Below are positions 40,089 to 45,030 of a stretch of 64,000 nucleotides of DNA, piece after piece. Within the stretch, counting starts at the first letter, position 1; every line of letters starts with the position of its first letter. The stretch lies in the IMG/VR virus record IMGVR_UViG_3300014204_000122, positions 32,001-96,000 of that record. The stretch is one strand, 5' to 3'. The notes under the pieces are model-generated. The model worked only from the letters and a program-made list of their open reading frames with translations. It had not been told where the DNA came from and searched no databases. Made by a program: the position numbers and the translations under genes. Origin of the DNA: a virus. Lineage: Duplodnaviria; Caudoviricetes.

Positions 40089-41726
40089 TTATTGTAAATA
40101 TAAATCAAATATATCATCTTCTGTTAATCCGTCTCCTAAATTAACAATGTTTCTTTCAATAATAGTTTTCATACCATCTCTAAAATCCGCCTGTCTTCTT
40201 TCTATGTGAAATATATAAAACATCGCAATGGTCAAACTCATTATTAAGTCATCATGTTTGCCTTCCGCATGATCTCTTCTCCCTCTTTTACTCCAAATCC
40301 ATGTATATAATTCATTTATTATCATAGGACAAGGTATAATTAGTTTTTTTGTATTTAACATTTCTTCTAACTTGTCACCTCCTAATGTTCTAGTTTTTTC
40401 GGTTTGCCAAAATCCTATTTTACGCTTTTTATCTTTTTGTGATGGATCTTCTCTTTTTAACGTAGAATAAAACAAATTTGTATATTTATATGTATCTCTT
40501 AAAGATATTAATACAGATAATCCAAATTGGTGTTCTACTATTACCAATGCGTTTCCATATTCTCTAGCTACTGTATTTATTATTTCAGCAAATTTAGCTG
40601 TTTCAAATTGATCTTTATATGTAGCAACTATTTCAAAATTATTTAAATTTATAACTACAAAAGTTGAAAAGTCAGATCCGTCTCCTGTTGCAACGTCAGA
40701 TACAAGAATATATTTACAACCTTCTTCATATTTCTTCCATTGCTTATAATTCTTCCATGGTCCACTTGTTATTTCATTTAATTGTTTATATTCTTTTGCT
40801 AATATTTCTAAATCTCTAACTATTTCTGGATTTAAAACTTCTCCACCAGAACCGGCAAAACTACAATCTAACTCACATCTAGTTTTTTTAGCTCCAAGAA
40901 CTTTACTTTCTGCATCATACCAAGGGCTTCTTATTCTACCATCTCTAATAAAATTGTAATCTTCTCTACAAGTACATTTATATTTACGTCTATTTTTTAT
41001 ATTATTCATATCAGGCCATGTGTCACCCTTCATAAATTCTATATAACCACCTTCAGATTTAGCTTTATCTTCTATCCATCTGTATTGACCTAAATTATAA
41101 ATAGGGTGTTCTGTCCAATGTGCATTGATAATATTCCAGTTGTTTTCTTCCGCATTTGTATATTGCTCAAAGTACCACCCCTGGCTTCCTTTTGGTGTTG
41201 AAATTACTATACACTTTCCTTGTGATCTAGTTAAAGTTAAACCAGCGGCAGCCCATATATCCTCCATCCACGATATGGCAGCGCAGTTACTACTTACAAC
41301 TTCACTTGTATAATAAATACTATTTTTTTCAACATCGAGTAAATCAAATAACTCTACTTCACCTACCTTTTTTCTTTTAGAAATTACTCTATCACCCGTA
41401 ATAACTTCATCATTTTTTTTAAGTAAATAAGTGTATTTAAATTCTCCGTTTTTCATTAAAAACTTATGATATGGAGAACATTTTAATAAATTTCCATTAC
41501 TAAACTTAATATGATAACAATATGGTTTAACTATTTTTTTAACTGAAGAAAAATTACTCCAACCTGTAGGAGTTAATACTTCCCAATCAGATATTTTTTT
41601 AACCTCTTTAGAAGATTGCGCATCTACATTATCAATATCAATAGTATTAAAATCTAACAATTCGTCGTTAACTTCTATAGATATATTATTATCTTTTATA
41701 TGTTGTTGTAATTCATCGTAGTTCAT
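40089..41726 (-). CDS. terL: terminase large subunit, C-terminal part, fused behind the split-intein C-fragment
   Basis: aa1-147 intein (WEVLTPTGWSNF, CSPYHKF, FDLLDV..YYTSEVVSSN), then C+1 AAI..., ISTPKG motif III, ELDCSF.GSG, DVATGDGSDFS, HDDLIMS nuclease motifs. Confidence 0.9.
   Translation of the reverse strand: MNYDELQQHIKDNNISIEVNDELLDFNTIDIDNVDAQSSKEVKKISDWEVLTPTGWSNFSSVKKIVKPYCYHIKFSNGNLLKCSPYHKFLMKNGEFKYTYLLKKNDEVITGDRVISKRKKVGEVELFDLLDVEKNSIYYTSEVVSSNCAAISWMEDIWAAAGLTLTRSQGKCIVISTPKGSQGWYFEQYTNAEENNWNIINAHWTEHPIYNLGQYRWIEDKAKSEGGYIEFMKGDTWPDMNNIKNRRKYKCTCREDYNFIRDGRIRSPWYDAESKVLGAKKTRCELDCSFAGSGGEVLNPEIVRDLEILAKEYKQLNEITSGPWKNYKQWKKYEEGCKYILVSDVATGDGSDFSTFVVINLNNFEIVATYKDQFETAKFAEIINTVAREYGNALVIVEHQFGLSVLISLRDTYKYTNLFYSTLKREDPSQKDKKRKIGFWQTEKTRTLGGDKLEEMLNTKKLIIPCPMIINELYTWIWSKRGRRDHAEGKHDDLIMSLTIAMFYIFHIERRQADFRDGMKTIIERNIVNLGDGLTEDDIFDLYLQ
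41286..41726 (-). mobile_element. split intein C-fragment (IntC, 147 aa)
   Basis: Block B CSPYH, block F FDLLDV, block G VSSN followed by extein Cys (41283-41285). Confidence 0.85.
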
Positions 41727-41867
41727 ATACTATATTATAGTTTTTTCTAAATATAATTTTTATTTAAATAAGATAGAATTTAAATTGTTTTCTACAGTAT
41801 TTTTTTTGTTTTTTAGATGATATCACTAAGATACATTATTTATATTTAAACAAGAAAAAAAATAATT

Positions 41868-42488
41868 TTATTTGTATTTTTCTAAATAAAAAAGATCTTT
41901 TAAGTCGATTGTTTTTGTTTGTTTTGTAATTTTATTTCTTACAACTACTTGATTATCAACTGATTCGTCGATACATAAGAGTGAAATTGTGTCTCCTCTA
42001 CATGCGTCAGGTTTATTTGCTTCGGCTAGTATTGTACTATCATTTTTTAATCCAAATGATTCTTTCGCATTATTATTTTCATCATAATCTGGGATAAGCC
42101 ACGGTGCTTTTTTTCTTGCCCCGTCTAAAAAATCTCTAACTCCTTTTAAAAACTTTTTAGATGTCTTTTTTTCTTGAGCTAATGCGTTAACTACTTTTTT
42201 TGATTTTGTAGCCATAAACCACGCTACATAGGCTTGAGCTACTGTAGTTAATCCTGTTTGACGAGTTTTCATAGTCATATTATAATCATATTCTTCAAAA
42301 TCTTTAATTGCAACATTTTGATAGGGATAAGGATCAAATAAAGTTTCAACTCCTGTATTTGGATCTGTAAGAGGAAAATAATTAGTTATAGTATACAAAG
42401 GGTCATTCATACACTTTATATATTCATTAGTTAAAACTGTTACTCTTTCTTTCTCTGGTAATGTGTTTAAATATTCTAAAGTTAACAT
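41868..42488 (-). CDS. terL: terminase large subunit, N-terminal ATPase part, fused to a short split-intein N-fragment
   Basis: PYPYQ (Q motif), KTRQTGLTT (Walker A), RGDTISLLCIDE (Walker B), then SVDNQVVVRNKITKQTKTIDLKDLF. Confidence 0.9.
   Translation of the reverse strand: MLTLEYLNTLPEKERVTVLTNEYIKCMNDPLYTITNYFPLTDPNTGVETLFDPYPYQNVAIKDFEEYDYNMTMKTRQTGLTTVAQAYVAWFMATKSKKVVNALAQEKKTSKKFLKGVRDFLDGARKKAPWLIPDYDENNNAKESFGLKNDSTILAEANKPDACRGDTISLLCIDESVDNQVVVRNKITKQTKTIDLKDLFYLEKYK
41871..41963 (-). mobile_element. split intein N-fragment (IntN, 31 aa, Ser1)
   Basis: Starts immediately after Walker B DE; block A-like S-V-D..V.V.NK.T...K.I.L.DLF. Confidence 0.8.
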
Positions 42489-42495
42489 ATTTTAT

Positions 42496-44457
42496 TTAAA
42501 TGTATTTGTAAATATCATCTTCAACAGAAATTCCCCATGTTTCATCAGTAATATCGTTTGATAATTCTATATTATTATATTCTTCATAGAACCATAATGA
42601 ATATATTTGATTTTTTTTATCTTGAAATATAAAACCATAATCATAAAATACCATATCGTTATATCCTTCTTTAATATAATCTAATTCTTCAATTATTTCA
42701 TAATTTTCATTTGCTTTAATAAGATTATAATTTTTTTCTATAAATTTTATTTTCTCTGTACTATTTGTGTTAATTACTGTTGAAAAAGGGTAAAGATTTC
42801 TGATTGCAGAATTAGTATTAGTAGGACCATCATAATAAACGGTTTTAGAATCTTCATCAATTTTAACATGATCTTCAATAAATTTATTTTTTATAATATA
42901 ATTTGAATATTTATTTATAAGATATTCTTCAACTTTTTCAGATACAGTTGGAATGAGAATCCAAACTATTTTTTTTTCTTCGTCAACTTTAATTATTTTT
43001 TCTAATCTTTCATCTAATTTAATAGGTTTAATATATTTTGAATATGCCATTTGGCTATTTTCCAAAATAGGTGTTTTATTAATATTTTTATTATAATAAT
43101 CTTCTAAATTTTCTTCAGATTCAAAATATTTAATTTCACTTTTAATTGGATTAAAATTAACCATTTCTCTTCCTTTAATAATTATACCATCATATCCTAG
43201 TTTTAACATTTCAACTTCAATAGTAGTATCTTTACGAAAATCTCTTTTGTCTTTATATTTTTTTGCTATATTACCCCAAAACCAAATTTCCCAATCATTT
43301 AATGTATTAAAAGTTTTAGGGTTTTTAGGAATAGCACCTAATACAAAATGAATCTTACCAAAAGGTTTAGCCATTTGATGATTAGATAAACAAGCTGTAT
43401 ATAAACCATCTCCTAACATTGCTCCACCACCGTTAGGGACTCCTTTTTCTCTCATTCCTCTAACTGTAACGTTTTTACGTTTCCATTTTAAATAATCAGA
43501 GTGAACATCTTCTAATAAATTTTCTTTTTTTAATAAAGATGTATGTTGTATAGTTTTTTCTCCATCTTTAGTAGGTTCAGAATAAACTATTTTTTCAGGA
43601 TTAACTACATATGTTTGATCTTTAAACATATCAATATATTTTTGTCCCTTTCCAGATTTTAAATAAGCTATTGTCGAATGTGGATTGTAATCAGGATAAT
43701 CAGAATGATAAGGAAAAATATCTGTTAATTTTTTATTTATTGAATTTAAAATATTTTTTTTAGAATTATGCTCTCTACATTCAAATTTTAAAACATCATA
43801 TTCTTTATTCTCAAAACATGATATATTATATAATTCTAAAGCTGGTATTTTAAATTCCAAAATACAATCAATTATATCTTTATAACTTTCTATTTCTTTT
43901 GTTTTAAATCCATATAATAATGTTGTGTGTGGTTCAGTCTCTAAACCAAAAGTAGGTTTGTCATATATATCTTCAGTATTTATTTTTTTTTGAATTTCTT
44001 TTAATTTATCAAAATTAAAAAACAACATAGCACATCCATATTCATATTTAGGCTTAGTTCTTTCTTCTAATAATACTTTTTTATTAGTAAGTTTCTCTAA
44101 CATTTCTACCATTGTTTTAACCTTTGATGGATTAAAACTTGATTTCACAGTGGTTGATACTAAATCTTTTCTAATATATCTTTGTATTTTATCATCTAGA
44201 TAATTTTTATCTTGTTTAGAAATTTTCTTTTTAATTATTCTTTCTATAATGTCAATAAGAGTTCTAGAATATGTTGAAGGTGAAATATTTCCTTTATTTA
44301 CTCCAGTTCCTAATTTAATCATCTTGTTTTGATCTTTTTCATTTAAATTCCCAATAGTATTAGCTTCTGGTATAGTTCTTTTAACGGCAGCCATTGCTAT
44401 ATTTAATATAACAAATCCTTGGTTATCATCTGAGGGAATAGGATAATTAATATTCAT
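42496..44457 (-). CDS. polyvalent protein: leader module, Acb1/T4 57B-like 2H phosphoesterase, ART-like domain, further domains
   Basis: MVEMLEKLTNKKVLLEE; GCAML, EPHTTLLYG and YNPHSTIAY (two HxT motifs); RG...GDGLY...A..FG...GYDGIIIKGREMVNFNP. Confidence 0.7.
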   Translation of the reverse strand: MNINYPIPSDDNQGFVILNIAMAAVKRTIPEANTIGNLNEKDQNKMIKLGTGVNKGNISPSTYSRTLIDIIERIIKKKISKQDKNYLDDKIQRYIRKDLVSTTVKSSFNPSKVKTMVEMLEKLTNKKVLLEERTKPKYEYGCAMLFFNFDKLKEIQKKINTEDIYDKPTFGLETEPHTTLLYGFKTKEIESYKDIIDCILEFKIPALELYNISCFENKEYDVLKFECREHNSKKNILNSINKKLTDIFPYHSDYPDYNPHSTIAYLKSGKGQKYIDMFKDQTYVVNPEKIVYSEPTKDGEKTIQHTSLLKKENLLEDVHSDYLKWKRKNVTVRGMREKGVPNGGGAMLGDGLYTACLSNHQMAKPFGKIHFVLGAIPKNPKTFNTLNDWEIWFWGNIAKKYKDKRDFRKDTTIEVEMLKLGYDGIIIKGREMVNFNPIKSEIKYFESEENLEDYYNKNINKTPILENSQMAYSKYIKPIKLDERLEKIIKVDEEKKIVWILIPTVSEKVEEYLINKYSNYIIKNKFIEDHVKIDEDSKTVYYDGPTNTNSAIRNLYPFSTVINTNSTEKIKFIEKNYNLIKANENYEIIEELDYIKEGYNDMVFYDYGFIFQDKKNQIYSLWFYEEYNNIELSNDITDETWGISVEDDIYKYI

Positions 44458-44461
44458 TGTT

Positions 44462-44899
44462 TTATTTATCTTCTAATAATACTTTTTTGTTAGTAAATTT
44501 TTCTAGTTTTTCTATTAAAACTTCTAGATTTTTATTAAAATTTTCAACATAAATATATTTTTTTACATTACTATGCTCTTCTATCTCTTTTTTCGTAAAT
44601 ATAAGCGCATTAGAAGCAATATTAAATGTTCCGCCTACTTCTCTAGGGCAATTTTCTAAACTCTTTAAATCATTATTAAACACATTAAAATCGCCTGTGA
44701 CAGAAATAAAATTAACAGGAATTTCTTTTAAACTGCAATTAGGAAGCTCTATACTGCCATTAACTCTAACTTGATAATCAGAATAATAATCTTTTAATAT
44801 ATTTAATTGTTCTAACTCTATATTTCCTTTATATAATAGTTCATTGTGGATTTTATCACTAGTTATAGTAACATTTTGATCAAAAATTTCTTTTTTCAT
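44462..44899 (-). CDS. LRR-like repeat protein with the leader module at its C-terminus
   Basis: Likely start ATG 44899 (MKKEIF); VTGDFNVFNNDLKSLENCPREVGG; ends LIEKLEKFTNKKVLLEDK. Confidence 0.6.
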   Translation of the reverse strand: MKKEIFDQNVTITSDKIHNELLYKGNIELEQLNILKDYYSDYQVRVNGSIELPNCSLKEIPVNFISVTGDFNVFNNDLKSLENCPREVGGTFNIASNALIFTKKEIEEHSNVKKYIYVENFNKNLEVLIEKLEKFTNKKVLLEDK

Positions 44900-45030
44900 T
44901 TTAAATTTGTTTTTTAAAAGTAAAGGTGGCGCTTTTAAACAGACAACCACCTTTTTAACTCATTAAGCTCATAACCATAATTAAATATTAAAAAAAATAA
45001 AAAAATTATATATTTAAAAATAAAATTAAC

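Follow-up and report, generated by a model that had tools for sequence, protein, structure and literature searches.

A tagged polyprotein with 2H phosphoesterase and ADP-ribosyltransferase-like domains, a candidate head cargo of a distant T4-like phage

The 64,000-nucleotide window analysed here comprises bases 32001–96000 of the 136,569-bp IMG/VR virus record IMGVR_UViG_3300014204_000122 (estimated completeness 63%). Directly upstream of the terminase gene terL it contains an open reading frame (ORF) at 42496..44457 on the minus strand, whose 653-amino acid (aa) product consists, in this order, of an N-terminal domain, a short sequence tag, a 2H phosphoesterase domain, a domain resembling ADP-ribosyltransferases (ARTs) and a C-terminal domain. 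Our preferred reading, to which we give a probability of about one half, is that this ORF, from a distant relative of T4, encodes a mosaic cargo polyprotein, one that would be packed, cut and injected with the DNA. The sequences and models show the identities of the domains, their intact catalytic residues, the recurrence of the tag in the genome, a prohead protease gene, conserved L-x-E motifs and an architecture suggestive of an inserted cassette; packaging, cleavage, injection and the substrates we infer. Judged by its head genes the phage is a distant T4-like phage, since the record encodes a prohead protease of the T4 gp21 family (Peptidase_S77, 76.9 bits against a cut-off of 27, at G000 113398–113805, in the gene at L003:17257–18027; phrog_207, 8e-34), a T4-type portal (phrog_213, 1.6e-51), whose nearest cultured relatives are those of Microcystis and Flavobacterium myophages (28–32% identity), and a gp23-type major capsid protein alignable to T4 gp23. 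(Coordinates prefixed G000 are those of the whole record, and L003 and L004 are pieces of the same record outside the window; P0001, P0002 and so on denote the retrieved representative proteins, P0001 being the ORF itself.)

Domain organization and the recurrent tag

An exhaustive phmmer search of 1.84 billion representatives found 2976 homologues of the ORF at E ≤ 1e-3. These split into two separate conserved domains, aa ~130–305 and aa ~310–460, which are found alone or in many architectures, and more than 1000 representatives at E ≤ 1e-10 carry the 2H domain, the ART-like domain (D2) or both. Such numbers of homologues rule out that the motifs discussed below are there by chance. A first-pass annotation, made from the letters alone, had marked 43123–44055 (aa 135–445) as an Acb1-like 2H phosphoesterase and an ART-like domain in one tagged polyprotein, and every motif that it quoted is in its place: GCAML at aa 141–145, EPHTTLLYG at 175–183 and YNPHSTIAY at 257–265 on the 2H side; NLLED at 313–317, VTVRG at 330–334 and GDGLYT at 349–354 around and in the first part of the ART-like domain; and GYDGII at 421–426, GREMVNFNP at 429–437 and PILE at 463–466 further on.

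The N-terminal domain (aa 1–115, 44113..44457; this and all other features of the ORF lie on the minus strand) belongs to no known family, and the N-part of P0053 is 59% identical to it (E = 5e-35). It is followed by an internal copy of the tag, MVEMLEKLTNKKVLLEE (aa 116–132, 44062..44112), recognized by its match to the tag profile and ending in LLE/LEE, by the 2H domain (aa 139–302, 43552..44043) and by the ART-like domain (aa 318–460, 43078..43506). The third domain that had been proposed to follow PILE is a C-terminal domain of aa 467–653 (42499..43059), an orphan whose only similarity is one of ~85 aa to P0053 (E = 3e-5); no homologues of it were found in the near or shorter length classes, nor was there a usable match in the ESM Atlas. 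The same atlas contains a letter-identical copy of the whole ORF. Searches of Pfam, NCBIfam and PHROGs with the N-terminal, ART-like and C-terminal domains gave nothing significant, and scans of IMG/VR with the N-terminal domain and with P0053 as queries returned no loci.

The first-pass annotation had named the tag, ending in VLLEE, and a further L-x-E linker at NLLED, and both are present. The tag recurs: a profile built from the copies in the window finds it on at least 23 ORFs across the 136-kb contig. It is mostly N-terminal (MKSEKEKQLEIQLLTEKIQRISGKKVVLKE) and elsewhere ~30 aa long, in some ORFs it is C-terminal, and in the ORF at 42496–44457 it is internal; its copies end in VLKE, VFTE, VLLEE or VILIE. 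They share 76% nucleotide identity, and only 64% of the codons for identical residues are themselves identical. These differences at synonymous sites rule out that the tag is simply a recent DNA repeat and indicate selection on the peptide. The portal and protease genes are separated by an ORF of 302 aa (L003:16206–17114 (+), G000 112206–113114), for which no PHROG or Pfam match was found; it ends exactly in the tag (…LEIELLTEKIQKLSGKTVIFE*) and occupies the position of the T4 prohead-core genes 67 and 68 (gp67/gp68), so that the tag might have come from a prohead core protein or might bind to one. Standalone relatives of the enzymes start with short leaders (MKLIDLIKE, MKILDLLTE or MKNFKTRSEFIAE), and these resemble the capsid targeting sequence (CTS) of T4, MKTYQEFIAE.

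Two further tagged genes deserve mention. The upstream neighbour of the ORF (44462..44950, minus strand) encodes 162 aa without a family match; the tag is at the C-terminal end of this product (…LIEKLEKFTNKKVLLEDK*), with only DK after it, so that two consecutive genes show the tag after an N-terminal domain. Frameshifting or readthrough that would fuse the 162-aa ORF to the 653-aa ORF is unsupported, as the former ends at a stop codon and the latter begins, after a spacer of 4 nt, with an ATG in a different frame. A 489-aa ORF at L004:5094–6560 (+) (G000 121094–122560) has an N-terminal tag and a Rubrerythrin/EncFtn-like ferritin domain (PF02915, 1.4e-10; EncFtn-like, 1.6e-5), and such a tag on a ferritin-like protein, in a virus that forms capsids, brings to mind the cargo loading of encapsulins.

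The 2H phosphoesterase domain

That the paired HxT motifs mark a genuine 2H domain is borne out, and membership of the 2H superfamily is secure. The catalytic residues H177-x-T179 and H260-x-T262 are intact, and both motifs (H177-T-T179 and H260-S-T262) are invariant in 33 relatives. The isolated domain scores 27.2–27.3 bits with Pfam 2_5_RNA_ligase2 (PF13563), a borderline pass of the cut-off of 27 (24 bits on the whole protein), and PF02834 does not reach its own (13.3 versus 23.3 bits). The AlphaFold2 (AF2) model of the domain, with a predicted local distance difference test score (pLDDT) of 93, matches all of the 2H families, Usb1, CPDase, LigT, AKAP18, the penguinpox cGAMP phosphodiesterase and phage Acb1, at VIA-align Z scores of 11.5–13, with 150–160 residues aligned at 3.0–3.5 Å to Usb1, CPDase, LigT and AKAP18.

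Of the more specific proposal, that this is a member of the Acb1 family (the T4 gp57B family, PF23474), the 2H fold stands and the membership is no more than tentative. The Acb1 model gives 19.8–19.9 bits on the domain and 15.9 on the whole protein, below its 27-bit cut-off; the PDB profile search slightly favours Acb1; and the folds tie, at Z 11.5–11.9 for Acb1 versus 12.1–13.0 for Usb1, CPDase and LigT, with Foldseek (E = 3e-5) likewise tied across the 2H families. Between an Acb1-like and a LigT-like placement the Pfam, PDB profile and fold searches taken together tie. If the domain were nonetheless a true Acb1, it would degrade the cyclic nucleotides of CBASS (an antiphage signalling system based on cyclic oligonucleotides) from injection on, a role that we consider possible though doubtful. 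In its favour, the profile of the family run against PDB sequences places Acb1 first (9q2g, E = 1.2e-3; 7t26, 3.8e-3), with archaeal LigT-like proteins at 0.03–0.05; Acb1 structures give the highest structure-based identity (16–20%) and the lowest root-mean-square deviation (rmsd; 2.6–2.8 Å); the block DYPDYxPHxT is held in common along with the two HxT motifs; of the 33 standalone relatives, 27 have a match to Pfam Acb1 at E ≤ 0.01 (the best at 3.7e-8); and several fused relatives lie above the Acb1 cut-off, at 29.6–38.2 bits (P0137, 37.3; P0141, 38.2). On the other hand, the ORF's own domain falls short of that cut-off and is equally near the generic 2',5'-ligase/CPDase models, the same standalone relatives match 2_5_RNA_ligase2 at least equally (31/33, best 9.4e-11), and the fold scores do not separate the families, whose clades have sequence identities under 20%. 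Moreover, Acb1 is a free early protein of ~150 aa, whereas the domain here is fused and tagged, and phage 2H phosphodiesterases comprise many lineages, whose varying specificities for substrates do not follow from the active site that they share (bioRxiv 10.1101/2025.08.21.671373).

RNA-end repair is a serious rival to an anti-CBASS role of this domain. The 2H enzyme would open RNA 2',3'-cyclic phosphate ends left by host anticodon/tRNA nucleases, and the ART-like domain would use NAD+ on the phosphate so produced, in the manner of KptA/Tpt1, or otherwise act on RNA, so that the pair would counter tRNA-cleaving defences and not CBASS. In P0003, P0098 and P0141 a 2H domain of this clade is joined to a PolyA_pol nucleotidyltransferase of the CCA-adding type, which hints at RNA-end repair no less than at anti-CBASS activity, and such an enzyme is also the fusion partner of the ART-like domain in P0003 (in the order ART-like domain, 2H, PolyA_pol) and P0073; the clade is also fused to ARTs, in the ORF itself, in P0003 and in P0133 (with ADPrib_exo_Tox), and once to a GNAT domain. 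The sole NCBIfam match of the 2H domain is TIGR02258 (RNA 2',3'-cyclic phosphodiesterase), the phage is rich in tRNA genes (12 of them within 5 kb), and a 2H enzyme beside an NAD+-using enzyme of ART fold is also the arrangement of ThpR/LigT and KptA/Tpt1 repair; a route in which a 2H enzyme is followed by KptA has been described in phages (PMC9503650). We nevertheless regard RNA-end repair as unlikely. The TIGR02258 score is 22.3 bits against a cut-off of 65.7; no match to a PolyA_pol (CCA enzyme), KptA or RNA ligase family was found in the 136 kb of this ~63% complete record; the ART-like domain is nearest to ART-PolyVal, is KptA-like in no search and has no Tpt1/KptA structure among its top fold matches; and the two domains occur together in only 3 of the ~160 proteins that carry the ART-like domain. 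In addition, polyvalent proteins mix functionally unrelated domains, so that fused domains say little about whether they serve one pathway.

The ART-like domain

The ART-like domain is the more conserved half of the ORF, 50–60% identical to many representatives, and its resemblance to the ARTs of polyvalent proteins, noticed at first in a few motifs only, is upheld by fold and profile. As aa 306–459 it matches no Pfam family at E ≤ 10, ART-PolyVal (PF18760) included, and its profile gives only chance-level matches to PDB sequences, which we set aside. Its AF2 model has a pLDDT of 90, and in an exhaustive VIA-align search ART folds take most of the top ranks (Z 5.1–3.8), among them the diphtheria-toxin family, SAIP, plant and human PARP, MbcT, ParT, NatT and RES. 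The entry 6kyf (AcrIF11) has a VIA-align Z of 4.2 and is first in Foldseek against the PDB (E = 4e-3); the code appears in an account of the AcrIF11 ADP-ribosyltransferase (10.1101/2024.08.26.609590). Among the viral models of BFVD the best matches are proteins annotated as ART-PolyVal or PolyVal ADP-ribosyltransferase (E = 2e-4 to 1e-3), and hhalign of the domain's profile (20 sequences) with a clean ART-PolyVal profile, for which 11 strong domains were taken from the giant proteins retrieved, gives 96.2% probability and E = 2.4e-9 over 99 columns. Foldseek and profile comparison, which had been suggested as the check on both assignments, thus upholds ART-PolyVal here and leaves Acb1 tied with other 2H families. 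A match to a chain of the cyanophage A4 pre-ejectosome (9k3a_B, Foldseek and VIA) was not used, as its rmsd is 7–9 Å and the paper mentions no ART.

The two families have in common the blocks G-x-Y-[FT]-[TS], A..Y(G), KNP and GYDG, and then a Glu-containing strand. They differ in β-1, where ART-PolyVal has V-Y-H-G-[ST] and the family studied here N-V-T-x-R-G, with Arg (R333) in place of the His. R333, Y353-T354 and E431 all fall in nearly invariant columns and are placed by the model on strand 1 (β-1), on strand 2 (β-2) and at the start of a late strand (model strand 127–130), respectively, the last in a G-R-E-M-V-N block resembling the E-x-x-V-F block of ART-PolyVal. Their arrangement in the model is the R-[ST]-E geometry that an active ART should have. 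These comparisons support an ART fold for the domain and its placement as a profile-level sister of ART-PolyVal, not a member of PF18760 as Pfam defines it. The two families are distinct, because P0009, P0033 and P0085 carry both at different positions; 20 of the ~95 representatives that bear the domain also carry ART-PolyVal. No second copy of the 2H domain, of the ART-like domain or of ART-PolyVal was found in the contig.

The company that the domain keeps is that of polyvalent proteins, in which unrelated effector domains are joined in one phage polypeptide beside the head-packaging genes (Iyer et al. 2017, PMC5512222; 2022, PMC9503650). It is present in polyvalent proteins of 1372–5166 aa together with ART-PolyVal and with RadC, Topo I, GNAT, NUDIX and Zeta toxin, these five being usual partner domains of ART-PolyVal as well; cREC_REC is a further partner. 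The ORF itself unites a 2H domain, an ART-like domain and two domains without a known family directly upstream of terL. It differs from the polyvalent proteins in being short (653 aa), in having no MuF or peptidase domain and in that its modules are parted by motifs of the T4-protease type; and its ART-like domain differs from ART-PolyVal in matching no Pfam model and in the β-1 Arg. In IMG/VR we found 65 loci with the ART-like domain, mostly standalone genes of ~170 aa, some of them on contigs of 300–675 kb. One locus (L042:5505–8462 (+), IMGVR_UViG_3300042484_003148) encodes a 986-aa protein ~3 kb downstream of terL, in which two ParB-like GxHR motifs, an HExxH motif and a Nudix box can be recognized by eye and the ART-like domain is C-terminal, preceded by INE; another (L045) has the 2H domain, a GNAT-like stretch (also read by eye) and the ART-like domain in one protein.

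The adjacency to terL, already pointed out in the first-pass annotation, is close: the ORF ends 8 nt short of the first of two ORFs, of 206 aa and 545 aa and 141 bp apart, into which terL (40089–42488, minus strand) is split. The first (41868..42488), directly downstream, is the N-terminal ATPase part (phrog_5989, 2.6e-28) and ends about 30 aa past a Walker-B-like LLCIDE. The first ~150 aa of the second (40089..41726; phrog_2/24361) match Intein_splicing weakly and end in ...VVSSN/CAA before the terminase sequence resumes, so that the insert resembles an intein that has been split, or interrupted, close to its N-terminus. Atypically split terL inteins have reportedly been described from metagenomes, and the arrangement here is reminiscent of them.

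Mosaic origin, junctions and head loading

The relative P0053 (257 aa) shows how the ORF may have been assembled. It is 59% identical to aa 2–138 of the ORF and then passes directly into a region matching aa 448–532 (E = 3e-5); that is, it consists of the N-terminal domain, the tag and the C-terminal domain, with no enzymes. Because P0053 has the flanking domains and the tag, the two enzymes of the ORF look inserted at the tag. P0002 and P0006 are standalone genes of tag plus 2H, whose tag–2H junction is in the same register as in the ORF, and in P0139 a 2H domain is followed by an internal tag. The simplest reading of these alignments is that a cassette of tag, 2H and ART-like domain recombined at the tag into a gene for N-terminal domain, tag and C-terminal domain. 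It had escaped the first-pass annotation that the tag is internal in the ORF and that the enzymes seemingly are inserted in such a gene.

The motif [LI]xE is present in all three inter-domain linkers of the ORF. Apart from the end of the tag these are L314-L315-E316 (43510..43518), between the 2H and ART-like domains, and I464-L465-E466 (43060..43068), between the ART-like and C-terminal domains, both recognized by motif and both candidate protease sites. By shuffling, the enrichment at the junctions has p ~0.008, for windows chosen after the fact. Among the relatives, 41 of 44 for 2H and 83 of 93 for the ART-like domain have [LIVMF]xE no more than 14 aa upstream of the domain, against a background of 25%. 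This is true of N-terminal domains (33/34 for 2H, 37/41 for the ART-like domain) and of internal ones (8/10 and 46/52, respectively). Upstream of 2H the stretch is variable except for the motif and is unstructured in the AF2 model, as a cleavage linker would be. The major capsid protein (L004:375–2051 (+), G000 116375–118051) has LAE at 52–54 and LQE at 61–63, which lie 17–26 residues upstream of an MIRR aligned to MVRR98-101 of T4, while LTE63-65 of T4 lies 33 upstream; these sites are compatible with a T4-like propeptide cut, and weakly informative because the spacing differs.

On the reading that the ORF encodes head cargo, its gene would be expressed late, together with the head-packaging genes, and the tag would dock the protein to the prohead core. 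The gp21-type protease would then cut after the Glu of the L-x-E junctions, giving fragments of ~15, 22, 17.5 and 22.5 kDa, and the 2H and ART-like enzymes would enter the host with the DNA, like T4 Alt. In the host cell the ART-like domain would modify a host macromolecule with NAD+ and the 2H domain would hydrolyse a phosphodiester, either that of an immune cyclic oligonucleotide, as Acb1 does, or that of an RNA 2',3'-cyclic phosphate end. To a cyclic oligonucleotide as the substrate we give a chance well short of even, and to a part in RNA-end healing a smaller one.

Several observations weigh against head loading and cleavage. [LI]xE is common at the composition of this ORF (14 sites in 653 aa). 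Upstream of the ART-like domain the motif (hydrophobic-x-Glu), after which a W/Y-N/D-H/Q stretch is conserved, belongs to a predicted helix, so there it may be part of the fold and not a cut site. The fold scores of the ART-like domain are modest (Z about 5, template modelling score (TM) 0.4–0.6), to our knowledge no ART-PolyVal enzyme has so far been characterised biochemically, and few of the IMG/VR genes for the ART-like domain, most of them standalone, are within 8 kb of head genes recognisable by comparison. Finally, the tag of the ORF is internal and the tags are about 17–30 aa long, as against the 10-aa N-terminal CTS of T4. An alternative is that the protein is an uncleaved, cytoplasmic multidomain enzyme that acts intact in the infected cell after late expression, its tag being an oligomerisation, regulatory or recombination-joint element. 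The varied placement of the tag (N-terminal, C-terminal or internal), where the CTS of T4 is strictly N-terminal, the frequency of L-x-E by composition and a mosaic structure in which the tag is found at recombination boundaries all agree with this, and T4 Acb1 is not known to be a virion protein. Yet we judge it unlikely, as the tag is conserved as a peptide with synonymous variation and also ends the protein encoded between portal and protease, a gp21-type protease is encoded in the genome, L-x-E motifs upstream of both domain families are far above background, and counter-defence enzymes that are expressed late would be of most use if taken along to the next host.

The known systems nearest to such head cargo are T4 Alt and the gp21-processed CTS cargo of T4 (IPI-III). 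Alt is annotated in the T4 record as an ART present in the capsid and delivered along with the DNA. The T4 CTS sends diverse internal proteins that counter host defences into the scaffolding core, and is the sole part conserved among them (PMC3012670). Head-packaged ARTs have been argued to be widespread, with genes often beside terminase or portal (Iyer and colleagues, PMC9503650). The phage studied here likewise is of T4 type, encodes a gp21-family protease together with an ART-type enzyme, and has a leader common to unrelated proteins that ends in [LI]xE. It differs in that its tag has no sequence similarity to the CTS, is ~17–30 aa long and is internal or C-terminal besides N-terminal; in that its ART is of the ART-PolyVal lineage, whereas Alt is of the Alt/VIP2 lineage; and in that several enzyme modules are strung together by L-x-E joints in one ORF. 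The ORF combines features of T4 Alt/CTS cargo with those of polyvalent proteins: an internal or C-terminal tag, cleavable-looking joints and an Arg-type sister of ART-PolyVal outside Pfam.

Beyond this one ORF, distant T4-like aquatic phages might build cleavable cargo polyproteins from exchangeable cassettes, with the tag serving both as prohead address and as recombination joint; here a pair of 2H and Arg-type ART would have been inserted, which may act together after injection in an NAD+-linked pathway on RNA ends or nucleotide signals. We offer this wider scheme as a speculation and consider it unlikely. If the head-cargo reading is true, head-loaded, protease-released enzyme cargo of the kind represented by T4 Alt and the internal proteins would extend to multi-enzyme polyproteins, and the T4 mechanism would be linked to the polyvalent-protein strategy, which has so far been described only computationally. 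There would also be an abundant ART family beyond Pfam with Arg in place of the ART-PolyVal His, and a concrete pair of enzymes for pre-emptive counter-defence carried in with the DNA. As the protein is small and its catalytic residues are clear, the candidate substrates (cyclic oligonucleotides, RNA 2',3'-cyclic phosphate ends and NAD+ targets) are directly testable.

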